This document shows positions 10,414 to 28,874 of a DNA stretch of 32,000 nucleotides, piece by piece. The notes beneath the pieces were generated by a model, which had not been told where the DNA came from, ran no database searches, and worked only from the letters and a program-made list of their open reading frames with translations. Position 1 is the first letter of the stretch, and each line of letters starts with the position of its first letter. A program made the position numbers and the translations under genes. This DNA is from Nonlabens ponticola (GTDB lineage: Bacteria; Bacteroidota; Bacteroidia; Flavobacteriales; Flavobacteriaceae), in the NCBI RefSeq assembly GCF_003966335.1, contig NZ_CP034549.1:180001-212000 (forward strand). The letters run 5' to 3'.

Positions 10414-10419
10414 ATCATT

Positions 10420-13239: not shown

Positions 13240-13256
13240 TCAAAAAACTGAACAAC

Positions 13257-13469
13257 ATGAATAGCAATAAATATTTACAACGATTTGTACTGGTGGCGGT
13301 AATCCTGTTCACCATGACCTTGATTGATGGTGATCTATATGCTCAAATAGGCGTACCAGAAGATGGTGATGTTGAAGACGTGGAAATGGCACCAATAGAT
13401 AGTCTGATATGGATTGCCATGGGCGCTGGAGCATTCATAGGCTACAAAAAACTCAAAAAAGATAACTGA
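13257..13469 (+). CDS. Hypothetical 70-aa mini-protein: N-terminal signal/TM, acidic linker, C-terminal TM helix plus basic tail
   Basis: ORF only. FVLVAVILFTMTLI...LYAQ, then VPEDGDVEDVEMAPID, then SLIWIAMGAGAFIGY-KKLKKDN. Fills the gap between two module genes (17 bp and 62 bp spacers). Coding status is unproven. Confidence 0.45.
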   Translation: MNSNKYLQRFVLVAVILFTMTLIDGDLYAQIGVPEDGDVEDVEMAPIDSLIWIAMGAGAFIGYKKLKKDN

Positions 13470-13531
13470 TTGCTAGCAGTATACAACTCAAGCAACCCCA
13501 AAACACAAACGATTACCTAAATCTACATATC

Positions 13532-14746
13532 ATGAAAAAAATTCTACTCTTATCCTTATGTGCAATATCCTATTTAGGGTATGGACAATGTAATGAACCA
13601 CTTATCACAGACTTTGAATGTGGTGAACCATCTAATCCTATCACGGGTGCGCTGGTTACCGTGGCAAATCCATTTCCTGGTGGCATCAACACCAGTGAAA
13701 ACGTGGGTGAATACACAGATGATGGAACACAAGGTTTTGACAACTTTAGTATTGAATACGGCGAGCCTATTGATCTATCGACAAACAGTGTCTTAACGCT
13801 TAAGCTCTACTCGCCTACTTCGGTTCAAATACTGGCAAAGCTTGAAGGTGGTGGTGGACCAGAAATCTTTTCTGACTTCAGTCAAGTCAACGAGTGGCAG
13901 GAATTCTCTTTTGACTTCAGCGCTTTTGCAGATGGCGGCAACACAAGAGTTGTGGTTTTTGTAAACCCAGCAGTTTCCAGTGGAACAACAACTGACATCT
14001 ATTATGTGGATGATATAGGTTTTGAAGAACCAGAAGAAGAAGCAGTGCCATGTGAAGGTCCTGTGATTACAGATTTTGAATGCTCTGCACCATCGCAGCC
14101 TATTACAGGTGCAATTGTGACTGTTGAGAATCCATTCCAAGAAGGAATCAACACCAGTGAAAACGTAGGACGATACACTGATGATGGAACCAATGGTTTT
14201 GACGCACTAGTCGTAGATTATGGGACAGAAATTGACTTATCTACAAATCCTATTTTCAGTGTGAAGCTTTACTCAACCAGTTCCGTTCAAATTCTTGCAA
14301 AACTTGAAGGTGGAACAGCGCAGGAAATCTACTCTGATTTCAGTGAGGTAAACCAGTGGCAGGAGTTCACATTTGACTTCTCAGATTCACAAGGTAATGG
14401 AAATACACGCCTAGCTTTATTTGTCAATCCAGCGGTAACTGATGGTACAACTACAGATGTTTACTTTCTAGACGATTTGAGTTTTGAGAGCGCTACTGCT
14501 TCCATCGATGAAAATTTCTTGAACAGCATCAAACTATATCCTAACCCAGCTGCTGACATCCTGAATATTTCTTCAGTTGACACTATAGAAAGCTATCAGA
14601 TACTAGACGTTTCAGGTAAGACCATCATGAGCAAAAATGAGAATATCTCTGCTGCGATTGATGTGAATAATCTGACTACAGGTATCTATTTTATCAGACT
14701 TAATTCATCGTCTTCTAAAGCGGTAATCAAGTTTGTAAAACAATAA
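13532..14746 (+). CDS. T9SS-secreted protein made of two copies of the Cys-capped module plus a T9SS C-terminal sorting domain
   Basis: Signal peptide. Modules at nt 13589-14026 and 14051-14488. CTD at about nt 14519-14743 (IKLYPNPAADILNISS...GIYFIRLNSSSSKAVIKFVKQ). Confidence 0.85.
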   Translation: MKKILLLSLCAISYLGYGQCNEPLITDFECGEPSNPITGALVTVANPFPGGINTSENVGEYTDDGTQGFDNFSIEYGEPIDLSTNSVLTLKLYSPTSVQILAKLEGGGGPEIFSDFSQVNEWQEFSFDFSAFADGGNTRVVVFVNPAVSSGTTTDIYYVDDIGFEEPEEEAVPCEGPVITDFECSAPSQPITGAIVTVENPFQEGINTSENVGRYTDDGTNGFDALVVDYGTEIDLSTNPIFSVKLYSTSSVQILAKLEGGTAQEIYSDFSEVNQWQEFTFDFSDSQGNGNTRLALFVNPAVTDGTTTDVYFLDDLSFESATASIDENFLNSIKLYPNPAADILNISSVDTIESYQILDVSGKTIMSKNENISAAIDVNNLTTGIYFIRLNSSSSKAVIKFVKQ

Positions 14747-14764
14747 TGATTAAATAAATTGAAG

Positions 14765-16792
14765 ATGAAAACTCCGTTATTCAAATATTCTCTGCTGGTT
14801 CTAGTAGTAACCTTACTGCATTCTTGTGAACGGGAATTAGAGAGATATGAATTGTTGACTTTTGAAAGATGTGAAACTGAAGATGTTGTTCCAGACCCGT
14901 TTGTGGTAACAGATTTTGAGTGTCAATCAAATGTCAATATCAATGGAGTTGAAGTCATCAGAAATCCCAGTGAGACTGGCGATAACCTATCAAGATTTGT
15001 AGGAGAGTATACCGATGGTGCCAGCGCCACAGATGCACTGGTTATCGAGTTTGACGATGACCTGGATTTATCTACCAACGCTACACTCTCGTTTGCCGTA
15101 AAAACAGATGTTACAGGAACGCTAGAAATTCAATTATTGGGCGATCCAGATGGAACGGTTTCTTATGAAGTCATCATCGCAGGTAACGAGCGCTGGATTG
15201 AGTATGAAGTAGACCTAGTTGATGATCGTGATAAAAGCTTTGATCAAATCAATTTTGTCTTCAATAGCGGTATTGAAAACAACGGTAATGATATTTACTT
15301 GATCGATAATATCAAATTTGAACTTACTATCGATCCTTGCGAGGATGTGGTGGCAGATCTATCCATCATCAGCGATTTTGAATGTCAACAGAATTACTTT
15401 TTGGGCGCAGACCCAGAACAAACCAGTGTTGAACCAGTCGACAATCCCTTTATTGGTGGTATCAATCAAAGCAGTGATGTAGGTAGATACGTGGACAACG
15501 GTACCGAGGCTTTTGACAACTTGCAAATCAATTTTGACGACGCGATTGATCTATCAGAAAAACCATTGTTTACCATGAAGGTTTATGCGCCTACCCCAGG
15601 AATACTTACAGTAAAACTGGAAGGCGGTTCAGAAGCTGTGGAGCAATCAGCAACGGTTACTACCGCAAATCAATGGGTAGAATACTCATTCAATTTTGCA
15701 GATGCCGTCGACAATGACAACGACACCATGATCATCTTCTTCAATGCAGGCAGCATGGATGGAAATGAGGCTGAAGTCTACTTCATCGACGACCTACAAT
15801 TTGAAGAATTTGTAGATCCATGTGAGAGCGTTGACGAGGATCTATCCATCATTTCAGATTTTGAATGCCAGCAGAATTATACCTTGGGTGTGAATCCTGC
15901 CTTGATCAGCACCATTGAAAACTTTGATCCTGACGACGTGAACATGAGTGATCTTATAGGTCAATATTCAGACGATGGCACACAAGGCTTTGATAATTTA
16001 CTCATTGACTTTGAGGACGACATCGACCTGTCAGAGCGTCCCGTGTTTTCCATTAAGGTTTATTCTACACAACAGGCGCCACTCGTGGCCAAAGTAGAAG
16101 GTGGCGACACACCTCTAGAAATTGCCAGAGAAATTACGGCTGTGAACGAATGGGTAGAATACACCTTTGACTTCTCGCCTGTGGCAGATCAAGGTAATGA
16201 CCAGCTGATCCTTTTCTTCAACTTCGGTCAGGAAGATGGTACCACCACAGACCTATATTATATTGATGATCTGCGATTTGTGGAAAATCCATGTGGAGTC
16301 ATTGATGAAGACTGTGAAAATGTCACACCAGACTTGACGATCATCAGCGATTTCAATTGCCAGCAAAACTATCATCTAGGTGCCGTACCTACTGTCGAGG
16401 ATGCGCCAGTCGTGCCTAATCCTGACGTGAGCTGTGAAAACAGAAGTGCCAATGTAGGCCGATACACTGATAATGGTACAGATCCATTTGACAATCTATT
16501 TATAGATCTTGAAGGACCGTTTGATCTTACCAACAACAGCACGCTACGATTAAAGATATTGTCTGATAATCCTGCGCCAGTTCCTGTTCTTGCAAAGCTA
16601 GAAGGTGGCACGCCGCTAGAAGTTTTTGCAGACGTTACGGTCACTGGCGAGTGGACAGAGATCAGCTTTGACTTCAGCGCTGCAATAGGTGCTGGAAACG
16701 ACGCACTTGTCCTATTTGTTAACGCTGGTGAGACCAACACGTCAACCGCAGACATCTACTACCTGGACGACATCAGGTTTGAAGCACCATAA
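14765..16792 (+). CDS. Lipoprotein made of four diverged copies of the Cys-capped module (candidate surface glycan-binding protein)
   Basis: ATG at 14765 (the track starts at TTG 14759). Lipobox LLHSC. Modules at about nt 14870-15322, 15338-15805, 15821-16282 and 16292-16783. No T9SS CTD; the protein ends in YYLDDIRFEAP. Confidence 0.85.
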   Translation: MKTPLFKYSLLVLVVTLLHSCERELERYELLTFERCETEDVVPDPFVVTDFECQSNVNINGVEVIRNPSETGDNLSRFVGEYTDGASATDALVIEFDDDLDLSTNATLSFAVKTDVTGTLEIQLLGDPDGTVSYEVIIAGNERWIEYEVDLVDDRDKSFDQINFVFNSGIENNGNDIYLIDNIKFELTIDPCEDVVADLSIISDFECQQNYFLGADPEQTSVEPVDNPFIGGINQSSDVGRYVDNGTEAFDNLQINFDDAIDLSEKPLFTMKVYAPTPGILTVKLEGGSEAVEQSATVTTANQWVEYSFNFADAVDNDNDTMIIFFNAGSMDGNEAEVYFIDDLQFEEFVDPCESVDEDLSIISDFECQQNYTLGVNPALISTIENFDPDDVNMSDLIGQYSDDGTQGFDNLLIDFEDDIDLSERPVFSIKVYSTQQAPLVAKVEGGDTPLEIAREITAVNEWVEYTFDFSPVADQGNDQLILFFNFGQEDGTTTDLYYIDDLRFVENPCGVIDEDCENVTPDLTIISDFNCQQNYHLGAVPTVEDAPVVPNPDVSCENRSANVGRYTDNGTDPFDNLFIDLEGPFDLTNNSTLRLKILSDNPAPVPVLAKLEGGTPLEVFADVTVTGEWTEISFDFSAAIGAGNDALVLFVNAGETNTSTADIYYLDDIRFEAP

Positions 16793-16800
16793 ATCAATGA

Positions 16801-16837
16801 AAAGTCGCCTAGCAATGCTCTAGGCGACTTTTTTTAT
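16801..16837 (+). terminator. Rho-independent terminator closing the susC-to-16792 operon
   Basis: AAAGTCGCCTAG-caatgct-CTAGGCGACTTT followed by a T-run, 9 bp after the stop codon. Confidence 0.85.
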
Positions 16838-16871
16838 CCAGTCATTAAATTGAAGGAAGGTGGTTATGATT

Positions 16872-16889
16872 ACGCTTTCGCGAAAGCGT
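16872..16889. repeat. Iterated palindrome, 18-bp perfect copy (ACGCTTTCGCGAAAGCGT)
   Basis: Read directly. Intergenic, between the PUL terminator and the GH13 start. Confidence 0.9.
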
Positions 16890-16958
16890 GATTACCACAT
16901 ACCACCTTACATATTGATTAATTTAGTATCTTTTAATTCAATACCAAATAACATTAAA

Positions 16959-18341
16959 ATGAATAAAGTAAGCCGTTGGGCAGCACTTGTTGTGGTTACT
17001 TTTTTGTGCGCATGCCAATCAAGTGATGAAGGAGTGGATGATGACTCCAGCATTCCTGTGGATCCTATTGACGATACAGCATACTCGCAATACGGCACTC
17101 CGTTTGGTCAAATTCCCGATACGGAGGACGTAGTAATGTATGAAGCTAATTTGAGAGCTATGAGTGCTGGTGGCGATTTACGTGGTGTTATCAATCGATT
17201 GGATCATATTGAGGACCTGGGTATCAATGTGATATGGCTCATGCCCATCCATCCACAGGGACAAGAAAGATCTGTCGGGTCGCCTTATGCCATAAGGGAT
17301 TATAAAGAAGTAAGCAATGAGTATGGAGATCTAGAAGATTTAAGGGAATTAACTGATGCTGCTCACTCTCTTGGGATAGCCGTAATTATGGACTGGGTCG
17401 CCAATCATACAGCTTGGGACAACGAGTGGATCGAGAATAAGGACTGGTACACTCAAGATGCAGCTGGTAACATAGTCATTCCATCTGGTACCAATTGGCA
17501 GGACGTGGCAGACTTGAATTTTGACAATCAGGAAATGAGGTCAGCGATGATAGATGCTATGAAATACTGGATCCTAGAAGCAAATATCGATGGCTATCGC
17601 TGCGACTATGCAGATGGCGTCCCAGCAGACTTCTGGGAAGATGCATGGGATGAGCTTGATGCGATTCCTAATAGAAAACTCGTGAAGCTAGCCGAAGGAA
17701 ATCGCGAAGATCATCTACAGTCAGGATTTGATTTAAACTTTGGATTTGAATTCTACGGTGCCATGATCAATGCATTTGAAGGTCAACCGGCAACCAGTAT
17801 CATGGAGAAAAGTGAAGAAGAATATGCTACCGTTCCCGATGGCAAACAAGTGTTGCGTTATACTACAAACCATGATGAGTCAGCATTTGCGGCGACGCCT
17901 ATAGAATTTTTTGGTGGTAAACAAGGAGCGCTCGCTGCTTCAACCATCACTATTTTTATGAATGGCGTGCCACTAATATATAGTAGCCAGGAAGTAGGGC
18001 GATCATCCAACGTGCCATTTTTCTCAAATTCTAGGATCGACTTTGATGCTAATCCAGATATGCTGGAATCTTACCAAAAAATGATTGCGTTTTACAACAG
18101 CTCTGCAAGTGCGAGAAAAGGAAGTACACAAGATTTCTCAAATGATGATGTTGTAAGTTTTAGAAAAACACTCAACAATGACGACGTATTAATAATAGCA
18201 AACATAAGAAACCGTGAAGTCTCATATGCTATACCTTCTAGCTTACAAAATACTGAGTGGAGTAACATCACTACCTCTAATACGGTGAGCCTGACTGGGT
18301 CCATCGATCTACAGCCGTATGAGTTTCTAATACTTGATTAA
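16959..18341 (+). CDS. GH13 alpha-amylase-family lipoprotein
   Basis: ATG 16959 gives MNKVSRWAALVVVTFLCACQ (lipobox). GH13 conserved regions: VIMDWVANHT, GYRCDYADG, KLAEG, YTTNHDE. The ORF-track start at GTG 16860 is a spurious upstream extension that runs through the palindrome. Confidence 0.88.
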   Translation: MNKVSRWAALVVVTFLCACQSSDEGVDDDSSIPVDPIDDTAYSQYGTPFGQIPDTEDVVMYEANLRAMSAGGDLRGVINRLDHIEDLGINVIWLMPIHPQGQERSVGSPYAIRDYKEVSNEYGDLEDLRELTDAAHSLGIAVIMDWVANHTAWDNEWIENKDWYTQDAAGNIVIPSGTNWQDVADLNFDNQEMRSAMIDAMKYWILEANIDGYRCDYADGVPADFWEDAWDELDAIPNRKLVKLAEGNREDHLQSGFDLNFGFEFYGAMINAFEGQPATSIMEKSEEEYATVPDGKQVLRYTTNHDESAFAATPIEFFGGKQGALAASTITIFMNGVPLIYSSQEVGRSSNVPFFSNSRIDFDANPDMLESYQKMIAFYNSSASARKGSTQDFSNDDVVSFRKTLNNDDVLIIANIRNREVSYAIPSSLQNTEWSNITTSNTVSLTGSIDLQPYEFLILD

Positions 18342-18362
18342 GTACTGTTATGATTTAATAAA

Positions 18363-18388
18363 AAAGCCTCTTCAATTGAAGAGGCTTT
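18363..18388. terminator. Hairpin terminator, copy A, flanked by an A-run and a T-run (bidirectional)
   Basis: AAAGCCTCTTC-aatt-GAAGAGGCTTT, 22 bp after the GH13 stop. Near-identical to the hairpin at 18728-18755. Confidence 0.7.
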
Positions 18389-18460
18389 GTGTGGATGACA
18401 GGAACCTGCCTGTCGTGCCTCTGGCAAGCAGGTCGAACATGCACACCTTGCGGCACTAGA
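18389..18460 (-). pseudogene. Degenerate duplicate of the 3' half of tRNA-Leu (anticodon-stem 3' strand to acceptor end) carrying a 28-nt insertion in the T-loop
   Basis: Aligns to 18755-18799 with two substitutions (18393, 18439) and an insertion at 18405-18432. There is no 5' half, so it cannot fold as a tRNA. Confidence 0.8.
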
Positions 18461-18710
18461 ACTTTTTATCCCTTAAATTTCTCAGCTGTCGTTTGCCTGT
18501 GCCACTTTTCCAATATTTTTCACGGATCCTAGCGGCTTGTCTCTCTATTCCAACTTTCTCCACCATCAGAACATCATATGGAGCGTAAGGAGCTATGGTT
18601 TTATTATTACCTGAATTGTGTACGGCAATTCTTTTCTCTACCTCACAAGACATACCTACATAGATATAATTTTTTTCTACACTGGAAATAGCATAAACTG
18701 AGTATATCAT
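18456..18710 (-). CDS. Small stand-alone GIY-YIG (URI-domain, COG2827-like) nuclease-family protein
   Basis: 84 aa: IYSVYAI...NYIYVGMSCEVEKRIAVHNSG...REKYWKSGTGKRQL. This shows the GIY/YIG-type strands, the conserved Arg and His-Asn, and a distal Glu. Its stop codon lies inside the tRNA-fragment homology. Confidence 0.8.
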   Translation of the reverse strand: MIYSVYAISSVEKNYIYVGMSCEVEKRIAVHNSGNNKTIAPYAPYDVLMVEKVGIERQAARIREKYWKSGTGKRQLRNLRDKKF

Positions 18711-18727
18711 AATGTAATAATAACAAA

Positions 18728-18755
18728 AAAAGCCTCTTCAAATGAAGAGGCTTTT
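18728..18755 (-). terminator. Rho-independent terminator of tRNA-Leu (hairpin copy B)
   Basis: AAAAGCCTCTTC-aaat-GAAGAGGCTTTT. On the minus strand it is followed by a T7 run, and it starts 2 nt after the tRNA 3' end. Confidence 0.8.
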
Positions 18756-18756
18756 G

Positions 18757-18838
18757 TGCGGATGACAGGAATCGAACCTGCACACCTTGCGGCACTAGAT
18801 CCTAAGTCTAGCGTGTCTACCAGTTCCACCACATCCGC
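18757..18838 (-). tRNA. tRNA-Leu (anticodon UAG), type II with a long variable arm; CCA not encoded
   Basis: Reverse complement folds by hand. Acceptor GCGGATG/CATCCGC. D arm GTG..AACTGGTAGA..CAC. Anticodon stem CTAGA/TCTAG with loop CTTAGGA. Variable arm TGCCGCAAGGTGT. T arm GCAGG-TTCGATT-CCTGT. Discriminator A. Confidence 0.9.
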
Positions 18839-19009
18839 AGAGTTTTGCTGACTACTTTATGCAAACTAAAACTAGGTTGCTGAGCGTAGCCGAAGCATAC
18901 TGGTTTTCCCTGTTTGGGACGGCAAATATACACACTTTTGAGATATTACAAATTCTTTGCATAAAGAAAAATGCTGCTTGCTATCTTTACCTCAAACCAT
19001 ATCATTTAC

Positions 19010-20483: not shown

Positions 20484-21224
20484 CTACCTAGCTTTATGAG
20501 TTCTGGTCAACACATAACGTATATCATAGATATCGACTGGCTCTGTGCAGCGTATAAGAACGCGTCCGCCGTTAGCTTCCCAAGTATTTAAGGTGTAGGC
20601 ATTGAAGGAACTCAAGTAATAGTGCTCGATACCATTACCCTTAGTCAACACAAAATCCCTGGTGTAGATGTTTCCTACCGTACCTCCAATGTTGATGGAT
20701 AGAGTAACTCGAGTATCCTCATTTGTACGAGGTCTCATTTTAAATTCAATAACCACATTGAGACCATCGCCGTTGCGTCCAGTGATCGTTTGCGAGGCCA
20801 CATTATAGAATTCAGAAACATCCACGGGCAACTGTGATTCAATCTTACTACCCGCATTGTTAGGTAAGTAGTAGGTAGTATTTGCAGCTACCAGTCCTGG
20901 TGATGTGTCGGTAAATTGCGTATCATTATAAACTGCCCAACCCGTATAATCGCTATTGGTCGTTGTCGATGACATCTCTTGCCATGTATTACCATCATAA
21001 TAATTAAAGGCATCGATATCAGTATCATAGACCAAAAGGCCTTTGGCAGGATTTACAATTGCAGCAATCTGCGCACTAGTCATCCTAGGTGTCAACATAC
21101 CTTGGGTCGTTGAGCTTACATCCAGCAATGATGATGGATCAGGATCGGTAGTACCTATACCTACTTGTGCCATTGAAGTAAGGGAAAAGCACAAGAGAAC
21201 GATAACGATGTAGAGTCTCTTCAT
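20484..21224 (-). CDS. Secreted hypothetical protein with a Bacteroidota-typical N-terminal VGIGT...L(T/I)PRMT...GLLVYDTD...YYDGxxW region
   Basis: 246 aa with a signal peptide (SLTSMAQ). I recall the N-terminal ~65 aa motif from many flavobacterial surface or hypothetical proteins. The C-terminal ~150 aa is beta-rich and unassigned. Confidence 0.6.
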   Translation of the reverse strand: MKRLYIVIVLLCFSLTSMAQVGIGTTDPDPSSLLDVSSTTQGMLTPRMTSAQIAAIVNPAKGLLVYDTDIDAFNYYDGNTWQEMSSTTTNSDYTGWAVYNDTQFTDTSPGLVAANTTYYLPNNAGSKIESQLPVDVSEFYNVASQTITGRNGDGLNVVIEFKMRPRTNEDTRVTLSINIGGTVGNIYTRDFVLTKGNGIEHYYLSSFNAYTLNTWEANGGRVLIRCTEPVDIYDIRYVLTRTHKAR

Positions 21225-21364
21225 TTTTATTCACTTATGGTAATTAAAATTAGATTTTTATTAGTCGAGTAGGGTACTTTTTGAAGATTAAAAATAGTAA
21301 AAATCGATTAAAAGCATGTTTATACTAAAAACTTGGATTTGGATTGAATTGTTTTGAGGTTTAC

Positions 21365-21378
21365 GCTTTCGCGAAAGC
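21365..21378. repeat. Iterated palindrome, 14-bp core copy (GCTTTCGCGAAAGC)
   Basis: Read directly. Intergenic. Confidence 0.9.
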
Positions 21379-21664
21379 TTAATTTCTTTCCGACCGCATC
21401 CATAGCAATCATCTTATAAATATTAGCATCTATCCTGCAAGACGGCATCGTGCTATGGCACCAAGATTGAGAAATACAACAGCTCAGTCACATGATCGTT
21501 AATCGTATATCAACTCTTGATCGACAATTTATCGCAACTTGAGCCTGTTTTGCTGAGTTTTGCTCAACATCTATTACCTATGCCTCACTTGGCATATTTT
21601 GTAGTTTCATCTATTCCAGCGCGAGATGCGGACCTGCGTCAGCATGACAGTACATCTTAGATTA

Positions 21665-21705
21665 TTGAGCTTGGAATTCGAGATTTTGAACTTGGAACTT
21701 GGGTT
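21665..21705 (+). repeat. Degenerate heptad array (TTGGAAT/TCGAGAT/TTTGAAC/TTGGAAC...)
   Basis: Period-7 pattern read directly. Units are diverged. Confidence 0.5.
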
Positions 21706-21747
21706 TTTCCCATTAAAATAGTTCTCGACTTCGCTCGAACAAGCAGT

Positions 21748-21796
21748 TTGGAACTCGGAACTTGGAGCTTGGAGCTTGGAGCTTGGAGCTTGGAAT
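21748..21796 (+). repeat. Heptanucleotide tandem repeat: (TTGGAGC)x4 perfect, flanked by diverged units TTGGAAC, TCGGAAC and TTGGAAT
   Basis: Read directly. Ends about 15 bp upstream of the first BlaI-type operator. Confidence 0.9.
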
Positions 21797-21811
21797 TTGA
21801 AAATTCCACCT

Positions 21812-21825
21812 TCTACACTTGTAGA
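21812..21825. promoter_or_regulatory. BlaI/MecI-type operator 1 (TCTACA-ct-TGTAGA palindrome)
   Basis: TACA/TGTA inverted-repeat dyad, typical of BlaI/MecI/CopY-family operators, upstream of the repressor gene. Confidence 0.6.
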
Positions 21826-21838
21826 ATTGCATTTTTAT

Positions 21839-21852
21839 TCTACATTTGTAGA
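21839..21852. promoter_or_regulatory. BlaI/MecI-type operator 2 (TCTACA-tt-TGTAGA), overlapping a TAnnTTTG -7 box (TACATTTG, 21842-21849)
   Basis: Second copy of the dyad, 27 bp after the first and 22 bp before the ATG at 21874. The overlap with a Bacteroidota -7 consensus suggests autorepression. Confidence 0.6.
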
Positions 21853-21873
21853 TGTGGTTCTAAATACATAGAA

Positions 21874-22239
21874 ATGAAGTTATCAAAGTCAGAAGAAGAA
21901 TTGATGAACATCATCTGGAAAAAGGAAAAAGCCTTTATGAAAGATTTACTAGAAGCCTACCCTGAACCCAAACCTAAAAGTACGACCATCGCTACCATGC
22001 TCAAACGCATGACCGATAAAGGTTTTGTTGGCTACAAATTGTATGGAAATAGCCGTCAGTACCACGCACTTATTGAAAAAAGCGCTTACTTCTCAAAGCA
22101 TGTCAACGGATTGATCAAGAATTTCTTTAACGACAGCGCCTCGCAGTTTGCTTCATTCTTCACCAAAGAAACCAATCTATCACAAAAAGAACTGAAAGAA
22201 CTCAAGAAAATTATTGATGACCAAATTAAAGACGCCTAG
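21874..22239 (+). CDS. BlaI/MecI/CopY-family winged-helix transcriptional repressor
   Basis: Start at ATG 21874 (MKLSKSEEELMNIIWKKEKAFMKDLLEAY...STTIATMLKRMTDKGFV...YHALI). About 121 aa, typical size. The upstream part of the tracked ORF only reads through the heptamer repeats. The stop lies 2 bp before the sensor gene. Confidence 0.85.
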   Translation: MKLSKSEEELMNIIWKKEKAFMKDLLEAYPEPKPKSTTIATMLKRMTDKGFVGYKLYGNSRQYHALIEKSAYFSKHVNGLIKNFFNDSASQFASFFTKETNLSQKELKELKKIIDDQIKDA

Positions 22240-22241
22240 CA

Positions 22242-25019
22242 ATGGAACAGCATCTTATAAATAGCTCTATTTGTCTGTTCAGCTTATGGCTGACTTATAA
22301 ATTATTACTGGAAAATACCAGCTGGCATCGTTTCAAAAGATTTTATTTACTGGGTAGCGTGGTAGCTTCTGCGATAGTTCCACTTATTGTGGTGCGCACA
22401 ATCGTTATACCGGTACAGATATATCAAACACCTGTGATACCAGAGTTTGAGTATGTTGAAACGACAGTAGCAGAAACTGGATTTCAAATAGATTGGATGA
22501 TGGTCCTGATGGCCATTTACATTATCGGCACCTTGATCATGGCAACAAGGCTAGCGCTCAATCTACGCAATCTTAGAGTCCAACCAACGGACGAGATCAC
22601 AGAATACAAAAACTATCAGCTTGTTCTTAGATCATTGATAGAAGTTCCGCATTCGTTTTTAAATAAGATTTATGCTTCCAGAAAAAACTATCATGCTGGC
22701 AGAATTCCTGAAGTAGTTCTAGATCATGAGAAAGCACATCTGGATCAAAAGCACAGTCTGGATATTCTATTTATAGAAGCCCTTATCGTCCTGATGTGGT
22801 TCAATCCGCTGGTGTATTTACTTAAATATTCGGTTAAACTCAATCACGAATTCCTAGCCGATCAAGCCGTGATCGCTGCAGGTGCTAACACACATCAATA
22901 TCAAGAAACGCTGCTTGCATTTACCGCTGGCAAACAGCAACGAGCACTTGCCAACACCTTTAATTTTCCCATCATCAAGAAAAGATTTACCATTATGAAA
23001 ACACAGACAAACCATACTGCTGGACTTTTGAGAAGTCTAGCCATTATTCCAGTTCTTGCTCTTCTTGTGATAAGCTGCGGTCAAGAAGAAACTGTCATGG
23101 AAACAGATGTCATCGAAGAAGAAAAATCTGAGGAATTAGACGAAAAATTTATTGTTATTGAAGCAAAAGCTAACGAAGGCGTCGTTTATGTAAAAGGTGT
23201 TGATTACAAGTATGTACGAGATGATGCCAAAATCAACTTCTATGATTCCGTAGGAAATAAAATTGACTTTGAAAATCAAGGGTATACCTTAATAGAAATA
23301 GAAGAAATCGATGAAGAAATCATTTATGAGCAAATTGATATTACAGCGAAAGAAATCAAAGAGTACGACAATCTAGCTCAAAAACACACCGCTGAACTAG
23401 AAGAAAAAGGAAATTCCATTTTTCTAGGAAAAGAGACTACGAGAATGCAAGCTCTTTGGCATAATATGAATACCCAACAAAAAGCCAAAGCAGAGCCATG
23501 GCCATATGTAGGTGTAGGTGATACCGAAGCCGGTGAAATCGCAGCGCCACCAGTACCTAAGAAAAATGATACTATGTTATCAGGTATGCCATTGTCCAAT
23601 GGAGCCAAAATTATATATGCGCCAGTATCAATGCCTGCTTATGATTTCAATGCCAATTTTTATAATCAATCCGATTTAGCCAAACTCAGAAAACAATACG
23701 GTCAAAATCTTATAGCAATTACTGGTTACACGAACTATGAAGGAAATAGATATGAATATGCCGAAGATTACAAAGGCGGTACGTATTTCAATGAAAATAT
23801 GGAAATGGTCGATCTTGAAAAAAAAGCTAGAGGCAAAATAATTCGCAAAACCATATTGCCACCACCGCCGCCACCGCCGATGCCATCTAATGCAAGCATC
23901 ATTAAAGGTCTGAATAACGGTAGCATGAAGTTATTCATTAAAGGAAATCCTGCTAGCACAAGTGAGGCGGCACGCCTTCCAGAATCTTATAAGAATAATG
24001 AGATGTACATGAAACGTAAGAATGGCGTCTTAAATATTTATTTTGAAGGTGAATTAAACGATAAGGCCGCCACAGAGAAGATATCACCGCAAATAACTAC
24101 CGATAAAGACAAGCAAACAGCAAGTATTCAAAACGGCTCATGGAAAGATGTGAAATACTTTCTACAATCAGGAACAGAAAGTACATCAGAGTCGCAAGCC
24201 AATGAAGATTACCAAAAAAGAATGGCATTTCTAAATTTAGCCGACAAACAATTAAAGCCAGTTAACTATACTATTGATGGCAGAAAGGTAAACCAAGCTC
24301 AAGTGAAGCAATTGATTGCAAGCAATAACTCGGTACCGTTCTCTTTGGTCACTGAAAAAGGTGATCAACATGAGCTAGCTTTCAAAACTTCGAATGAAAG
24401 AATATCAGCCACTGAGCTTCAAAAGATGTATTCGCGCTTATTTGAGACCGTAGATCTTAACAAGAATAGAAAACAGTTTGTACTTGTATCGTCAAATGCT
24501 ACCACAAGACCTCAACAGGATACTCTTTACACGATTACCGATAAAGCCACAAATGAGAAGATGGATGTCAGATTTGTAAGAACAGAAGATCCCTACTCTT
24601 TTTATGAGCTTAATGGTGATAGAGGCGATGGTACTTTTATTCATAATGGCGTCAAATACAAATACAACATGCCCACCGACCTGAGCCTAGAACTTTTTGA
24701 CGAGGATGGAAAAAAACTTACATCTGATCAAATCAAAAAGTTGAAATTAGTACTAACTCCTATCTGGAACAGCAAATCAGAAGAAAAAGTACTTAAAAAT
24801 GACCCAGTAGTACGACAATATTTTGAAAATGGAAATGCCGTATTTTTCCATAGAGACGGCTATACAAACGATTATGCAGAAATGATCGCCTATGATTTTG
24901 GCGACACCTATATTCATAAATTCTTGGAACACGGCAAACTAAGAATTGACCTGATCCCATACAGCTGGAAAAAAACTAATCCAACATTGATTGACTTCTT
25001 TAAAAGAGATAATATTTAA
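22242..25019 (+). CDS. BlaR1-like M56 metallopeptidase membrane sensor with a ~640-aa unassigned extracytoplasmic C-terminal region
   Basis: N-terminal TM helices. HEXXH (DHEKAHLDQKH) and the LNHEFLAD motif of family M56. Last TM at about aa 262-280. Then an acidic stretch, a Pro7 run (nt 23859-23879) and repeated G-x-(K/R)-Y-(K/E)-Y motifs. Confidence 0.8.
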   Translation: MEQHLINSSICLFSLWLTYKLLLENTSWHRFKRFYLLGSVVASAIVPLIVVRTIVIPVQIYQTPVIPEFEYVETTVAETGFQIDWMMVLMAIYIIGTLIMATRLALNLRNLRVQPTDEITEYKNYQLVLRSLIEVPHSFLNKIYASRKNYHAGRIPEVVLDHEKAHLDQKHSLDILFIEALIVLMWFNPLVYLLKYSVKLNHEFLADQAVIAAGANTHQYQETLLAFTAGKQQRALANTFNFPIIKKRFTIMKTQTNHTAGLLRSLAIIPVLALLVISCGQEETVMETDVIEEEKSEELDEKFIVIEAKANEGVVYVKGVDYKYVRDDAKINFYDSVGNKIDFENQGYTLIEIEEIDEEIIYEQIDITAKEIKEYDNLAQKHTAELEEKGNSIFLGKETTRMQALWHNMNTQQKAKAEPWPYVGVGDTEAGEIAAPPVPKKNDTMLSGMPLSNGAKIIYAPVSMPAYDFNANFYNQSDLAKLRKQYGQNLIAITGYTNYEGNRYEYAEDYKGGTYFNENMEMVDLEKKARGKIIRKTILPPPPPPPMPSNASIIKGLNNGSMKLFIKGNPASTSEAARLPESYKNNEMYMKRKNGVLNIYFEGELNDKAATEKISPQITTDKDKQTASIQNGSWKDVKYFLQSGTESTSESQANEDYQKRMAFLNLADKQLKPVNYTIDGRKVNQAQVKQLIASNNSVPFSLVTEKGDQHELAFKTSNERISATELQKMYSRLFETVDLNKNRKQFVLVSSNATTRPQQDTLYTITDKATNEKMDVRFVRTEDPYSFYELNGDRGDGTFIHNGVKYKYNMPTDLSLELFDEDGKKLTSDQIKKLKLVLTPIWNSKSEEKVLKNDPVVRQYFENGNAVFFHRDGYTNDYAEMIAYDFGDTYIHKFLEHGKLRIDLIPYSWKKTNPTLIDFFKRDNI

Positions 25020-25094
25020 ACTGAGCGTAAACTCAAGTTCAAGTCTAATACCATTTCGTTTATCCGCACGTTATAGTCTTCTAATCAAGAGACT

Positions 25095-26195
25095 ATGCAA
25101 TCATTTTTCATCTTCTGCAGCGGCGCAGATGCAGACCTACTGGACCAGTGCAGTGCTGGCGAGCGCAACAAATATGCAGGTATAGGCGCCACGGTATTTT
25201 TTACGGCACTTATGGCGTTTTTTGCGGCTAGCTATGCGTTATTCACTGTATTTGATAGCTATTTAATTGCTAGTGCTTTTGGCTTGGTTTGGGGTTTGTT
25301 AATCTTCAATCTGGATCGCTATATCGTGAGCACGCTCAAGAAAAGTGACAGGAAAATTAATGAGATCTGGCAGGCGACGCCGCGCATTCTGCTGGCGATT
25401 ATCATTGCCGTCGTCATTTCAAAACCGTTGGAGCTCAAGATCTTTGAAAAGGAGATCGATCAGGTGCTGCTGGAACAAAAGAATCAGTTGACATTAGCTA
25501 ATCAGGAACAAGTTGGCTTGCTGTATGCTGGTGACGAGTTAGCTTTCGCGAAAGCTATACAAGAATTAAACAACGAAATTGCGACCAAGGAAGCGCAAGT
25601 CGAGCAACTATACAGCACGTACATCGCAGAGGCCGAAGGAACCGCAGGCACCAACCGCATAGGAAAAGGACCAGTTTATCAAGAGAAACGCGACAAACAC
25701 GACGCCGCACTCGCTGAATTGACATCACTCAAAGCCATCAACGCAGCCAAAATTGCAGACCTTGAATCGCAGCTAGCACAACTGCAAACCCAAGAAGCCG
25801 AACAGCTTGCCGCAACGCAGCCCGTAATTGATAATTTTGATGGATTGATGGCGCGTATTGCTGCGCTCAACTCGCTACCGTTCTTGACTTCGTTCTTCAT
25901 TTTTCTCTTGTTTCTAGCGGTAGAAACCTCACCAATTATTGCCAAACTACTCGCACCGCGCGGTGAGTATGACTACAAGCTAGCCGAGCGTGAGAACCTT
26001 GTAAAATCATGGGTGTTGCAGCAACAGTCACAGCAACAAATCCTCATGCAAACCGATCGTGAACTCAACAACCGAGTTTACAGCGACATCGCCGACGAGG
26101 ACGAACTCTACCAGTACAAAAAGAAAACCGCACGCCAACTCATGCAAAAACAAGCCGATGCTTTCTATGAGAAGCAAAAACGTATTTTGGGGTAG
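25095..26195 (+). CDS. DUF4407-like membrane protein with a central coiled coil
   Basis: N-terminus FFIFCSGADADLLDQCSAGERNKYAGIGATVFFTA, then TM helices and LIFNLDRYIV, as I recall for DUF4407. Long Q/E/A-rich coiled coil and a further TM (LPFLTSFFIFLLFLAVE). Family call is from memory. Confidence 0.6.
   Translation: MQSFFIFCSGADADLLDQCSAGERNKYAGIGATVFFTALMAFFAASYALFTVFDSYLIASAFGLVWGLLIFNLDRYIVSTLKKSDRKINEIWQATPRILLAIIIAVVISKPLELKIFEKEIDQVLLEQKNQLTLANQEQVGLLYAGDELAFAKAIQELNNEIATKEAQVEQLYSTYIAEAEGTAGTNRIGKGPVYQEKRDKHDAALAELTSLKAINAAKIADLESQLAQLQTQEAEQLAATQPVIDNFDGLMARIAALNSLPFLTSFFIFLLFLAVETSPIIAKLLAPRGEYDYKLAERENLVKSWVLQQQSQQQILMQTDRELNNRVYSDIADEDELYQYKKKTARQLMQKQADAFYEKQKRILG
25540..25557. 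repeat. Iterated palindrome, 18-bp perfect copy (TAGCTTTCGCGAAAGCTA)
   Basis: Read directly. Inside CDS 25095-26195, encoding LAFAKAI. Confidence 0.9.
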
Positions 26196-26211
26196 ATGGA
26201 GGATTAAGAGT

Positions 26212-26260
26212 GTGGAGTATGGAGTATGGAGTATGGAGTATGGAGTATGGAGTATGGAAA
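26212..26260 (+). repeat. Heptanucleotide tandem repeat: GTGGAGT, (ATGGAGT)x5, ATGGAAA
   Basis: Read directly. Starts 17 bp after the DUF4407-like stop codon. Confidence 0.9.
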
Positions 26261-26310
26261 CTGAACGATTCTTATGACATCTATGCTTAATTAAAGAACT
26301 CGTACTTGTC

Positions 26311-26331
26311 ATGCTGAGTTCAGCTCAGCAT
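26311..26331 (+). other. 8-bp stem hairpin (ATGCTGAG-ttcag-CTCAGCAT) within a REP-like motif TGTCATGCTGA...GCATC
   Basis: Read directly. No T-run follows, so a terminator role is uncertain. An inverted, related motif lies at 21626-21651. Confidence 0.4.
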
Positions 26332-26435
26332 CTTGCACAGTTTAAATTATACAATAAGCGTGGATTCATAAGCAACGCACATGTTCTATCACCGCAATGC
26401 TCTATCATCTTAGCCGCAAGACGTATCTTGCTACC

Positions 26436-27089
26436 ATGTTTTTTCTACCTAAGGATCTTGATGATTACATAGTGCAGCACTCTCAGGACGAGCCGCAAAT
26501 TTTGCAGGATTTGACACGCGAGACCTATCGCAAGGTATTGCAACCCATCATGCTTTCTGGCGCTTATCAGGGTCGCGTGTTGAGTATGATCTCACAGTTG
26601 CGCGCACCTAAACAAGTTCTAGAAATTGGCACATTCACGGGTTATTCCGCACTGTGTTTGATGGAAGGCATGCCCGATGGCAGTGAACTGCACACTATTG
26701 ATATCAATGAAGAACTTGAGGATATGGCTGCTGGATACTTTGCACGCTTTCGCGAAAGCGAGAACAAAAACATCACCATCCACCAACATATAGGCGATGC
26801 AACTACCATTATACCATCACTGCAAGCTGGCTTTGATTTAGTCTTCATTGATGCAGACAAGCCTAACTACGTCAATTACTACCACCAAGTCATGGAAAAA
26901 GTGACATCTGGCGCCTTGATCATTACCGATAATGTCCTGTGGCACGGGAAAGTTGTGAAAGATGTAAAGCCTAAGGATAGCTCAACACCTATCCTATTAG
27001 AATACAACAAATTGCTTAAGGAAGATCCTAGATTACAAACTGTTTTGTTAAGCGTGCGTGATGGTTTGACACTAAGTCGAGTGCTGTAA
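26436..27089 (+). CDS. Class I SAM-dependent O-methyltransferase (caffeoyl-CoA O-methyltransferase-like, Methyltransf_3 type)
   Basis: Start at ATG 26436. Motif I VLEIGTFTGYSALCL, then FIDADKPNY and ITDNVLWHGKV, typical of cation-dependent O-methyltransferases. Confidence 0.8.
   Translation: MFFLPKDLDDYIVQHSQDEPQILQDLTRETYRKVLQPIMLSGAYQGRVLSMISQLRAPKQVLEIGTFTGYSALCLMEGMPDGSELHTIDINEELEDMAAGYFARFRESENKNITIHQHIGDATTIIPSLQAGFDLVFIDADKPNYVNYYHQVMEKVTSGALIITDNVLWHGKVVKDVKPKDSSTPILLEYNKLLKEDPRLQTVLLSVRDGLTLSRVL
26745..26760. repeat. Iterated palindrome, 16-bp perfect copy (CGCTTTCGCGAAAGCG)
   Basis: Read directly. Inside the O-methyltransferase CDS, encoding RFRES. Confidence 0.9.
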
Positions 27090-27922: not shown

Positions 27923-27960
27923 ATTACAAATATACAATCTTGTATATCGCGGCACTATTT

Positions 27961-28806: not shown

Positions 28807-28820
28807 ACTTCTATAAACAC

Positions 28821-28850
28821 AAAAAAGCCAGATTCATTGTGAATCTGGCT
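28821..28850 (-). terminator. Rho-independent terminator of the M1 peptidase gene
   Basis: GCCAGATTC-attgt-GAATCTGGC. On the minus strand it is followed by a T6 run, and it lies about 25 bp after the stop at 28875. Confidence 0.8.
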
Positions 28851-28874
28851 TCAAATTTATGGTTTAAAGAACGG

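Follow-up and report, generated by a model that had tools for sequence, protein, structure and literature searches.

The locus examined here raises the question of why a very short nuclease gene of Nonlabens ponticola lies between an intact tRNA-Leu gene and a second, partial copy of that gene. The original prediction took the arrangement for a small homing-like element or, alternatively, the last remnant of a decayed island. We analysed the whole 32-kb stretch of DNA (hereafter the window) and compared the locus with its relatives in other genomes.

Organization of the locus

All the parts named in the original prediction were found in place, to within 1-2 nt. On the minus strand, the order is an intact tRNA-Leu(UAG) gene, a terminator, an 84-aa GIY-YIG ORF, a tRNA copy running from position 39 to the 3' end, and a second terminator. 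The features are as follows:

18923-18930, minus strand: putative Bacteroidota-type -7 promoter box (TATATTTG) of the tRNA-Leu transcription unit (conserved upstream block)
18756-18838, minus strand: intact tRNA-Leu(UAG), TAG anticodon (ARAGORN; Rfam RF00005, 60.6 bits, E=3.8e-12)
18728-18755, minus strand: intrinsic-terminator-like hairpin B, immediately 3' of the tRNA and part of repeat copy B, 18726-18799 (terminator scan: 12-pair stem and T-run)
18456-18710, minus strand: 84-aa single-domain GIY-YIG ORF ("type 1"; EKYWKSG family), its stop overlapping the pseudo-tRNA start (ORF list; Pfam PF01541)
18433-18460, minus strand: pseudo-tRNA-Leu piece 1, with anticodon-stem 3' strand, variable arm, T-stem 5' strand and T-loop to GTTCGA, tRNA positions 39-66 (27/28 identical to 18772-18799)
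18405-18432, no strand assigned: 28-nt palindromic hairpin unit (minus strand CCTGCTTGCCAGAGGCACGACAGGCAGG) in the T-loop at GGTTCGA^TTCC (motif match, flank comparison)
18389-18404, minus strand: pseudo-tRNA-Leu piece 2, with the remaining T-loop, T-stem 3' strand and acceptor 3' strand (repeat block 18386-18404, 18/19 against 18753-18771)
18363-18388, minus strand: intrinsic-terminator-like hairpin A, the end of repeat copy A, 18360-18460 (terminator scan; repeat family D1)

The predicted duplication of the tRNA 3' half together with its terminator was borne out as a direct repeat of three blocks, 18433-18460 matching 18772-18799 (27/28), 18386-18404 matching 18753-18771 (18/19) and 18360-18388 matching 18726-18754 (28/29). 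In copy A the first two blocks are split by a 28-nt insertion (18405-18432), and the TAG stop codon of the ORF (18458-18456) falls within the repeat, as had been noticed. The terminator hairpins A and B are 97% identical; the terminator scan gave 2 such hairpins against 0.6 expected in shuffled sequences. The DNA between the repeats consists of the ORF only, an insert of about 270 bp. A match of Rfam BTnc231 over copy A was rejected as spurious, since it scored 19 bits against a gathering score of 80.4 bits and covered the terminator hairpin only.

The neighbouring genes encode a GH13 amylase, an M20 dipeptidase, polysaccharide-utilisation-type proteins and a BlaI/BlaR-like pair. In agreement with the original prediction, the window contains no integrase gene for about 10 kb around the locus, and its ten large ORFs in the interval 8.1-26.2 kb yielded no recombinase domain.

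The ORF encodes a minimal GIY-YIG domain

The 84-aa ORF matches the Pfam GIY-YIG family PF01541 (E=2e-12; profile positions 2-74 of 78), the domain spanning residues 3-73 with no accessory domain; no NCBIfam family matched. The family alignment contains 19 invariant columns, among which are Y6, Y17, G19, R27 and E64, and H31 is near-invariant. The AlphaFold model (pLDDT 95.6) shows a three-stranded sheet with helices, that is, the catalytic core alone. Its best Foldseek matches were the Slx1 nuclease domain (TM 0.67-0.68), UPF0213 proteins (BH0048, EF2693) and the I-TevI catalytic domain, with E-values that are modest (best 0.016) because the domain is small. Judged by its domain match, catalytic residues and predicted fold, the ORF product is a member of the GIY-YIG superfamily.

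Slx1 and UPF0213 (YhbQ-like) proteins are thus the closest in predicted fold. However, Slx1, a structure-specific enzyme acting on branched DNA, works with an Slx4 partner and contains a RING/zinc-finger domain, and UPF0213 proteins give a weak match to the profile of the present family (E=6.5e-5). To our knowledge, no association with tRNA genes or hairpins has been described for either. The pN/pS ratio against orthologues is about 0.3, with pS saturated; the ORF is under purifying selection and is not decaying.

The cassette layout recurs beside tRNA genes

The ORF product is one of a large family of GIY-YIG proteins with a single domain. We collected 80 genome loci (L001 etc., phylogenetically related) carrying relatives of the ORF. 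A same-strand tRNA gene adjoins the ORF in 77 of the 80 loci (76 tRNA-Leu and 1 tRNA-Ser), lying upstream of the ORF in 32 and at its stop codon in 45. The original prediction had proposed examining other GIY-YIG copies for a neighbouring tRNA with a duplicated part. Among these relatives, a significant partial tRNA copy, beating all 30 shuffles, lies across the ORF from the intact tRNA in 68 of the 77 loci, which puts the repeat of the window, being of the same kind, well outside chance expectation. In many of them it is the 5' portion of the tRNA that is duplicated instead of the 3' portion, and one intact tRNA copy is always left beside the nuclease gene. In the window and the closest relatives the repeat takes in the terminator; at L008 and L027 it goes no further than the 3' end of the tRNA, and the two terminators are not alike. 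Cassettes are found at several tRNA-Leu isoacceptors as well as at tRNA-Ser, tRNA-Asn and tRNA-Lys genes, with tRNA-Phe in a sister subfamily, and 2-4 tandem copies are present at 6 of the 80 loci. The layout recurs in Bacteroidota and other bacteria and is not an accident of one genome. A literature search on the arrangement and on the palindrome string described below found no description of this layout.

The insertion in the pseudo-tRNA is a conserved palindrome

The original prediction had noted the 28-nt insertion in copy A and overlooked that it is a conserved hairpin repeat which co-varies with the nuclease subfamily. The insertion corresponds to a palindrome (CCTGCCTG...CAGGCAGG) with a length of 20-28 nt in the family (type-1 hairpin). 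In the window the hairpin lies 24 nt 3' of the ORF stop codon and has one stem mismatch against the family consensus, a C-to-T change, because of which the DNA fold of copy A lacks a simple hairpin. A motif search gave a single match in the window, exactly in copy A. Among the related loci, the type-1 hairpin occurs within 400 nt of the ORF in 64 of 80, in most cases flanking the gene on a single side, and 78 of the 99 motif matches in 464 kb fall within 150 nt of an ORF.

The insertion points in the pseudo-tRNAs, mapped by matching 7+6-nt flanks, are precise, few and fixed, in the D-arm or the T-arm (tRNA positions 9, 15, 23, 62 and 65/67). There is no target duplication, and in 54 of the 92 insertion blocks the flanks, once joined, give the sequence of the intact tRNA exactly. 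At L001, L002, L003, L005 and L011 the 28-nt unit sits at the identical T-loop point, in either orientation.

The hairpin sequence is conserved across phyla and was found on more than 100 unrelated contigs with 29-71% G+C. Of 120 metagenome copies of the hairpin 20-mer, only 4 have a GIY-YIG gene no more than 400 nt away; the same layout is seen at three of them, with tRNA-Asn, tRNA-Ser and tRNA-Lys, and the fourth (L203) has no tRNA. Two landing rules were considered and rejected: insertion into the loops of other hairpins concerns a minority (5/117 with a flanking stem of at least 6 bp; permutations 0.9%), and nesting in GTCAT...ATGAC (SRM-like) repeats is not general (4/115 against 0.8% at control positions).

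A second GIY-YIG subfamily carries a different palindrome

A second GIY-YIG subfamily (type 2), found at the orthologous site with the same layout, carries a different palindrome, TCCCGATAGCTATCGGGA. This type-2 hairpin was present at 5/5 type-2 loci and 3/80 type-1 loci, and the type-1 hairpin at 64/80 type-1 loci and 0/5 type-2 loci, a comparison that comprises only five type-2 loci and in which the loci are phylogenetically related. The window and L082 share one orthologous tRNA site, and in each the hairpin type agrees with the nuclease type. Type-2 hairpins were also seen at loci without a type-2 ORF nearby. From this distribution, and by analogy with the Ssn family, the GIY-YIG subfamilies and their palindromes look like cognate nuclease-hairpin pairs; the co-variation of hairpin and nuclease subfamily points to the Ssn nuclease/hairpin paradigm.

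Comparison with the Ssn nucleases

The Ssn proteins, described in 2025 and corresponding to CDD cd10448, are single-domain GIY-YIG ssDNA nucleases of about 94 aa whose genes are flanked by cognate hairpin repeats of 20-50 nt (PMC11893778). Cleavage by SsnA at the NTS repeat was shown biochemically, the hairpin being recognised in ssDNA and nicked nearby (Chenal et al., Nat Commun 2025; PMC11893778). The present family resembles them in being widespread, in its single domain (<150 aa in general, about 80-100 aa, here 84 aa), and in having beside the gene a short hairpin repeat of 20-50 nt that is subfamily-specific and also found elsewhere in genomes. It differs in that mostly only one flank of the gene has the hairpin, which sits at set points in the D-arm or T-arm of a pseudo-tRNA, and in that the module is built into a tRNA/pseudo-tRNA duplication; the Ssn paper makes no mention of tRNA (PMC11893778).

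As a stand-in for SsnA we used three GIY-YIG ORFs that have a Neisseria-type NTS core 7-47 nt away. The family and these NTS-linked ORFs were related with an hhalign probability of 96.6% and profile E-values of 5e-8 to 2e-6, and BLASTP gave 35% identity over 31 residues. The A2 profile is no closer to the NTS-linked ORFs (about 30 bits) than to UPF0213 proteins in PDB (26 bits). The published SRM pattern HGTCWYN(0-2)YYVSBRHN(0-5)WNVSBRGN(0-2)RNCYNB had 0 matches in the window and the 500-nt flanks of the 80 loci, against 2-3 matches in each of the three NTS-linked control loci. As judged from the profile comparisons, the relationship of the family to NTS-linked Ssn-like proteins is real but distant.

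Age and polymorphism of the cassette

Identity among orthologues at this tRNA-Leu(TAG) site is only about 52-65%, and their synonymous sites are saturated, which gives no sign of recent spread. Two copies within one genome (L011 and L054) are 60% identical, the ORFs group by tRNA isoacceptor and configuration, and no near-identical dispersed copies were seen. Within each genome, however, the two repeat copies are near-identical, in the window with their terminators, despite these old and diverged orthologues; they evolve in concert and are not the mark of a recent insertion.

A search for sites without the GIY-YIG gene in related strains, as the original prediction had suggested, was productive: at the orthologous Nonlabens site, L083 and L084 lack the ORF, both being scarred, and L082 has a different GIY-YIG gene. 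The pseudo-tRNAs of the ORF-less L083 carry yet another palindrome. N. spongiae (L081) was discarded as an "empty site", since there an integrase-bearing element of about 99 kb separates tRNA-Leu(TAG) from a three-copy array of type-2 GIY-YIG genes. Of the homing-like element originally envisaged, a recurrent tRNA-tied cassette that leaves the tRNA intact and is polymorphic in its presence stands; a recent integration or homing scar does not, in view of the divergence and the saturated synonymous sites.

Promoter and expression of the ORF

A block, TATGTATATTTGCCGTCCC, is conserved 5' of the orthologous tRNA in L001, L003, L011 and L081-L084. The published Bacteroidetes promoter consensus is TAnnTTTG, and by comparison with it we assigned 18923-18930 as the putative -7 box of the tRNA-Leu unit. 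A sigma-70 promoter scan gave no match on the minus strand of the window. In the 45 of 80 loci where the stop codon adjoins the intact tRNA, it mostly lies no more than 20 nt from the tRNA 5' end, which leaves no room for a separate promoter. The original proposal that the ORF may be expressed by read-through from the tRNA promoter fits the family, these 45 loci in particular.

Proposed explanation of the locus

Taking the sequence comparisons and the Ssn analogy together, we consider, with slightly better than even confidence, that the locus is a resident Ssn-type nuclease-hairpin module embedded in a tRNA gene duplication. The 84-aa protein would be a hairpin-directed nuclease that recognises its cognate stem-loop in single-stranded DNA and nicks nearby. 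The ORF would be transcribed from the tRNA promoter, here by read-through of terminator B; in the other configuration, with the ORF stop at the tRNA, the tRNA transcript would necessarily have the ORF as its leader. Nicking at the pseudo-tRNA that bears the hairpin would provoke local recombination, which would account for the tandem amplification, the loss of the ORF and the gene conversion that keeps the repeat copies near-identical over long periods. The intact tRNA copy would preserve host viability, leaving the redundant copy free as landing pad and recognition site. Such a module may be either selfish and mobile (IS-like or REP/RAYT-like) or domesticated.

A bolder reading, which we regard as doubtful, is that the GIY-YIG protein and the palindrome together make up a system that moves hairpins autonomously, the nuclease serving as a minimal "transposase". 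Such a system would insert its cognate 20-28-nt hairpin precisely, with no target duplication, into the single-stranded D- and T-loops formed by tRNA-gene DNA, and would also trigger partial tRNA duplications of 60-100 bp that let the host survive. If true, this would be a new mode of DNA mobility with cloverleaf-forming DNA as landing pad, and would account for the multiplication of Ssn-type repeats.

The locus bears on the role of Ssn proteins outside Neisseria and on how their hairpin repeats multiply, and suggests that Ssn-related mini-nucleases live in tRNA gene duplications in Bacteroidota and in a number of further lineages. At least two nuclease-hairpin pairs with a common layout offer defined substrates, namely hairpins with tRNA-derived flanks, and cross-tests between the pairs. 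They form a natural system for asking whether such nucleases move hairpins, destabilise tRNA loci or merely gain expression from strong tRNA promoters.

Alternative explanations

It is unlikely, in our estimate, that the locus is a selfish cassette of the homing type, in which the GIY-YIG enzyme makes a double-strand break in a cassette-free tRNA-Leu gene and repair installs the ORF with a replacement tRNA part. Free-standing homing endonucleases exist among GIY-YIG enzymes, and SegB of phage T4 reportedly acts in a tRNA gene cluster; I-TevI is a weak match in sequence and structure. The occupation of several tRNA-Leu isoacceptors and other tRNAs, the polymorphic presence at the orthologous site, and the tRNA sequence on both sides, which would supply cross-species homology for recombination, are all in keeping with homing, as are the differing terminators at L008 and L027, expected of acquisition from another genome. 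However, the Seg and I-TevI enzymes have a long DNA-binding region and cut double-stranded cassette-free alleles, whereas the present protein is an 84-aa core with no DNA-binding extension and no phage context: only 1 relative was found in 2.9 million viral contigs and none in plasmids. The intact tRNA gene always persists beside the nuclease gene, which argues against its being the target of double-strand cleavage. The divergence of the copies at different tRNAs of one genome, the grouping of the ORFs by tRNA type and the saturated synonymous sites also speak against homing, which leaves the conserved subfamily-specific hairpins unexplained. The decayed-island version, an integrase-mediated island in the 3' end of a tRNA gene that later degenerated, is effectively refuted by the family-wide pattern. 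Tyrosine integrases do produce a duplication of the tRNA 3' part, bracketing the insert with a direct repeat and regenerating the tRNA, and N. spongiae holds a real integrase-bearing element in the same tRNA-Leu(TAG). Here, in contrast, the window has no integrase within 10 kb of the locus, the insert is only about 270 bp, and the ORF adjoins a tRNA in 77 of 80 relatives and is conserved under purifying selection. Moreover, either the 5' or the 3' part of the tRNA may be duplicated, the repeat may take in the terminator (as in the window and its closest relatives) or the 5' flank, and a specific hairpin is present in the dead copy. Such pseudo-tRNA fragments should not be taken for scars of integration.

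The remaining alternatives separate the hairpin from DNA recognition by the nuclease. A domesticated housekeeping gene co-expressed with the tRNA, with the pseudo-tRNA and hairpin acting as an RNA leader or 3'-UTR that controls processing or stability, would suit the long vertical retention under purifying selection, the co-transcription that would be obligatory in the 45 loci with the stop codon at the tRNA, and the location of the hairpins, always in the transcribed leader or trailer and at D- or T-loop points; an insertion there would abolish the elbow of the tRNA, which RNase P and RNase Z recognise. We nevertheless find it distinctly unlikely, because the hairpin is conserved in sequence, not in structure alone, across phyla and on more than 100 unrelated contigs, the 28-nt form, though asymmetric, is seen both ways round at one site, each nuclease subfamily has its own hairpin, and tandem amplification and loss are frequent. 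Very improbable, finally, is that the hairpins are an unrelated, independently spreading REP- or MITE-like repeat accumulating in any dispensable structured DNA, the pseudo-tRNAs being no more than favourable landing sites beside a nuclease with some other role. Most metagenomic copies of the 20-mer lie far from a GIY-YIG gene (116 of 120) or tRNA, so that another agent could spread the hairpin, and the type-2 hairpins away from type-2 ORFs and the further palindrome in L083 agree with this. Against it stand the strong local enrichment of the motif around the ORFs and the match of hairpin type to nuclease type between the window and L082, and copies in trans, far from the enzyme gene, are also typical of NTS/SsnA and REP/RAYT. 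In the IS200/IS605-related REP/RAYT systems, too, a single-copy enzyme gene is flanked by cognate short palindromes with more copies dispersed, but RAYT is an HUH Y1 transposase whose fold and chemistry are unrelated to GIY-YIG, and we know of no REPs embedded in pseudo-tRNAs beside the enzyme gene. The parallel with REP/RAYT has also been drawn by the authors of the Ssn study (PMC11893778).

Annotation of the family in databases

After trimming of miscalled N-terminal extensions, members of the family are about 78-90 aa long. The over-extended database proteins of the family form a broad, independent sample that also speaks for the proposed explanation: 31 of 41 encode translated tRNA or hairpin at the N-terminus. 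Gene callers often extend such ORFs into the adjacent tRNA or hairpin, and spurious N-termini such as AELVD...LPAGRQA result.

Structure of the locus

The original prediction described an intact tRNA-Leu, two terminators, a small GIY-YIG ORF, a partial tRNA copy and an insertion on the minus strand, and ARAGORN, Rfam, Pfam and scans for repeats and terminators recovered every one of these elements at its predicted position. The features of the locus are as follows:

18930-18923, minus strand: conserved TATATTTG box, putative tRNA promoter
18756-18838, minus strand: intact tRNA-Leu(TAG) (ARAGORN; Rfam, 60.6 bits)
18755-18728, minus strand: terminator-like hairpin B, directly after the tRNA (terminator scan)
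18710-18456, minus strand: 84-aa ORF between both terminators (Pfam GIY-YIG, E=2e-12)
18405-18432: 28-nt insertion interrupting copy A
18388-18363, minus strand: terminator-like hairpin A, near-identical to B (terminator scan)

The tRNA-Leu(TAG) is the sole tRNA that ARAGORN detected in the 32 kb of the window. A partial second copy, beginning with the anticodon-stem 3' strand and ending with the acceptor end, lies 3' of the ORF; with hairpin A it forms copy A of a direct repeat whose copy B is the corresponding part of the intact tRNA with hairpin B. The repeat consists of three blocks with identities of 27/28, 18/19 and 28/29, and the ORF's stop codon (TAG) falls within it. The best database protein match to the ORF is from Nonlabens ponticola (99% identity). 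The neighbouring genes encode a GH13 amylase, an M20 dipeptidase, polysaccharide-utilisation-type proteins and a BlaI/BlaR-like pair, and a domain search of the neighbouring ORFs in the window revealed no recombinase near the locus.

The surroundings (1-18341 and 20484-31803) look unremarkable for a flavobacterium, with a polysaccharide-utilisation-type cluster (GH3, GH13, proteins carrying type IX secretion sorting tails and a CBM protein) upstream and a BlaI/BlaR1-like pair and DUF4407 downstream. The leader of the window's tRNA is about 50 nt longer than those of the related loci L001, L003 and L011 and contains GCTTCGGCTACGCTCAGCAAC (18876-18896, minus strand). CTTCG..GCTCAG.. motifs resembling GCTTCGGCTACGCTCAGCAAC are found 5' of the tRNA in the loci L083 and L084 and in a hairpin loop in L036, and may be another short repeat family.

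The tRNA - ORF - tRNA layout recurs across the family

The family is large, and its proteins are about 82 aa in size: clustered at 50% identity, the matches of an exhaustive profile search form 1,578 clusters with E<=1e-10 and 8,956 with E<=1e-3. We inspected a sample of 80 genomic loci encoding relatives 48-66% identical to the ORF, mainly from Flavobacteriaceae, with some from Chitinophagales, Sphingobacteriales and Ignavibacteria. A tRNA on the same strand adjoins the ORF in 77 of the 80 (tRNA-Leu in 76, tRNA-Ser in 1). In configuration A (32 loci, the window's type included) the intact tRNA is upstream of the ORF, with a gap to the start codon of 14-55 nt in about two-thirds of the loci and 99-503 nt in the rest; in configuration B (45 loci) it is 3' of the stop codon, with a gap of mostly 0-20 nt. 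In 68 of these 77 loci, Smith-Waterman alignment against shuffled controls detected a partial copy of the same tRNA at the opposite end of the ORF. This copy is the tRNA 3' part in configuration A, starting variably from tRNA position 6 to about 68, and the tRNA 5' part in configuration B, comprising positions 1-24 exactly and usually continuing to the anticodon loop. The general layout is thus tRNA - ORF - tRNA, with exactly one tRNA copy intact. Among 41 family representatives with an over-long called N-terminus, the extension consists of translated tRNA (AELVD..., GSIP) or translated hairpin (LPAGRQA) in 31, a count that used ad hoc patterns and gives qualitative support.

Many database entries of the family, noted among the proteins P0013, P0065, P0085, P0103 and P0256-P0401, carry false N- or C-terminal extensions (e.g., MAELVDALDSKSS...GSIP and VAELVDLPAGRQA), which arise when a gene caller runs on into the neighbouring tRNA or hairpin.

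A palindrome interrupts the dead tRNA copies

In the 80 loci, the dead tRNA copies are nearly always interrupted by one conserved palindrome family with the arms CCTGCCTG and CAGGCAGG. Its short form is a 20-mer (CCTGCCTGCCGGCAGGCAGG or CCTGTCTGCCGACAGGCAGG) and its long form a 28-mer (TCGTGCCTCTGG) whose centre is asymmetric and of which both orientations occur. The window's 28-nt insertion is the 28-mer with one substitution in the stem, and is the single match of a motif census in the 32-kb window; across the 80 loci, which total 464 kb, the census gave 99 matches, 78 of them within 150 nt of the ORF. The palindrome is inserted precisely and without target-site duplication: joining the 7+6 bases that flank it restores a contiguous 13-mer of the intact tRNA in 54 of 92 insertion blocks. 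Most unmapped blocks share the left flanks of mapped ones, and failed to rejoin because the search pattern ended the palindrome four bases early. The insertion points are at tRNA positions 9, 15, 23, 62 and 65/67 (GTG^GCGG, GGAA^TTGG, GGTAGA^C, GCGGG^TTCGA and GGTTCGA^TT).

An unbiased scan of metagenome contigs with the 20-mer matched at least 120 contigs, with a G+C content of 29-71% among the matches listed. Most of these listed 20-mers lie away from GIY-YIG genes and tRNAs: the distance to a GIY-YIG gene of the window's family is at most 400 nt in 4 of 120, and that to a tRNA at most 100 nt in 8 of 120. Three listed contigs combine 20-mer, GIY-YIG gene and tRNA, all in configuration B at other tRNAs (L141, tRNA-Asn; L147, tRNA-Ser; L178, tRNA-Lys). 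In L141 the duplicated segment also takes in 15 nt of the tRNA 5' flank, so a direct duplication about 60-100 bp long, comprising flank and part of the tRNA, encloses the ORF body.

The exact 20-mer CCTGYCTGCCGRCAGGCAGG of these contigs (L085-L204) lies mostly in intergenic-looking DNA unrelated to tRNAs. It is nested in another copy in L134 and L159 and in terminator-like hairpins in L093 and L106, and L087 and L118 are among the contigs in which it has direct-repeat-like flanks. In L127, L178 and L187 the type-1 palindrome, as we call that of the window's subfamily, sits in the T-arm or D-loop of a pseudo-tRNA beside an intact tRNA-Ala, tRNA-Lys and tRNA-Val, respectively; no GIY-YIG gene is visible on the short contigs L127 and L187. 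In L203 (4900-5538) the GIY-YIG ORF (REKEIKKWRREKK) resembles the NTS-linked Ssn-like proteins described below, and 3' of it are two copies of a composite repeat that starts with TGTCATATCGAGGGAAGC and has the type-1 palindrome nested within.

Nuclease type and hairpin type co-vary

In other Nonlabens-like genomes, the orthologous site is identifiable from the shared dipeptidase neighbour and promoter block. At this site the locus L082 carries a different GIY-YIG ORF of 97 aa (type 2). A different palindrome, TCCCGATAGCTATCGGGA, lies on both sides of this ORF, once within a 5' pseudo-piece (D-loop) and once within a 3' pseudo-piece (T-loop). Four further type-2 loci (L326, N. spongiae; L327, tRNA-Leu(TAA); L328; L329, tRNA-Phe) all contain the type-2 palindrome and none the type-1 palindrome. 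Overall, the type-1 hairpin is present in 64/80 type-1 and 0/5 type-2 loci (Fisher p 6e-4) and the type-2 hairpin in 3/80 and 5/5 (Fisher p 2e-6), p-values that overstate the evidence given the phylogenetic relatedness of the loci. Even so, nuclease and hairpin switch type together at the same chromosomal site, as cognate pairs predict.

In L082 (3250-3900) and L326-L329, TCCCGATAGCTATCGGGA takes the place of exactly three nucleotides of the loop, which are ACT or GTC for the D-loop and ATT or AGT for the T-loop, unlike the type-1 palindrome, which is inserted without base loss.

Relation to known nucleases

The AlphaFold model of the 84-aa protein is confident (pLDDT 95.6) and represents a bare catalytic core with every motif residue present. 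The closest solved structures are the Slx1 nuclease domain (TM 0.67-0.68), UPF0213 BH0048 and the I-TevI catalytic domain; by sequence, the closest solved proteins are UPF0213 EF2693 (E=6.5e-5) and BH0048 (E=5.4e-4). In the literature searched, neither the palindrome nor an association of GIY-YIG genes with neighbouring tRNA-Leu in Bacteroidota is described.

Of the published systems, the Ssn family comes nearest. Its members, assigned to CDD cd10448, have about 94 aa and a single GIY-YIG domain, and they cleave single-stranded DNA adjacent to a cognate hairpin repeat (NTS/SRM). These repeats also flank their genes, an architecture that the authors likened to insertion sequences and REP/RAYT (PMC11893778). 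That paper makes no mention of tRNA, Bacteroid* or Flavobacter*. Scanning viral contigs for the NTS core provided, for comparison, three small GIY-YIG ORFs located 7-47 nt from an NTS, which the profile of the window's family finds at E=5e-8 to 2e-6. The hhalign probabilities were 96.6% for type 1 and 95.9% for type 2 against these ORFs, and 97.6% for type 1 against type 2; the three groups are related, but distantly. The published SRM pattern had no match in the window or the 80 loci, and 2-3 matches in each of the three NTS-linked control loci. By analogy, the window's locus probably works like an Ssn nuclease-hairpin pair, from which it differs in its new hairpin and its new tRNA-embedded architecture.

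Age, instability and proposed mechanism

Among the orthologues at the tRNA-Leu(TAG) site (the window, L002, L003, L005 and L011), non-synonymous differences amount to 0.24-0.32 of sites and synonymous differences are saturated (pN/pS about 0.3). The ORF is under purifying selection, and the gene at this site is old and maintained. A neighbour-joining tree, in which the ORFs group by tRNA isoacceptor and configuration, and the two ORFs of one genome (L011 at TAG and L054 at CAA), just 60% identical, gave no sign of recent copying between sites. The repeat copies, terminators included, are near-identical within each genome of the Nonlabens clade (the window, L001, L002 and L011), and the terminators differ between species; the repeats thus undergo concerted evolution, whether through gene conversion or through cycles of unequal crossing-over, and their near-identity in the window is no evidence of recent insertion. 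In L008 and L027 the two terminators of the locus are not alike. These loci are unstable: tandem ORFs in 2-4 copies occur in 6 of the 80, N. spongiae has three copies, and the ORF is absent from L083, which has two pseudo-3' units, and from L084, which has only an 8-nt tRNA stub.

The locus had been interpreted as a homing cassette or, alternatively, as the last remnant of a decayed island. The data reject the decayed island. The homing idea is right in part, as the cassette proved to be recurrent, tied to tRNAs and polymorphic, and is probably expressed from the tRNA promoter; a long-resident Ssn-like nuclease-hairpin module, however, fits the data better than active homing does.

In such a module, the tRNA promoter would drive the ORF, by read-through of terminator B in the window and within the tRNA precursor in configuration B. 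The predicted nuclease would recognise its own hairpin in single-stranded DNA and nick nearby, and these nicks would drive local duplication, amplification, loss and gene conversion. The redundant tRNA copy would tolerate the hairpin, and the intact copy would keep the cell viable. The 60-100-bp duplications could have originated from staggered nicks, from small-circle integration by homologous recombination or from recombination with foreign DNA via conserved tRNA sequence.

In the two tandem pseudo-3' tRNA units of L083 (3500-3660, minus strand), an orthologous site, a third palindrome (TCTCGGCTGAGCCGAGA-like) takes the place of each T-arm, and the terminator of one unit has the same sequence as the window's. 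In Nonlabens spongiae an integrative element of about 99 kb interrupts the same tRNA-Leu(TAG) (L081, CP019344.1 2885734-2895119; L326, CP019344.1 2989073-2992366); it has ParB/DUF932 genes at one end and, at the opposite one, a tyrosine integrase. The original 3' part of the tRNA, from about position 24 on, has been displaced to the far end, and after it come three type-2 GIY-YIG / pseudo-tRNA units in tandem, so that a textbook case of integrase action adjoins the nuclease cassettes.
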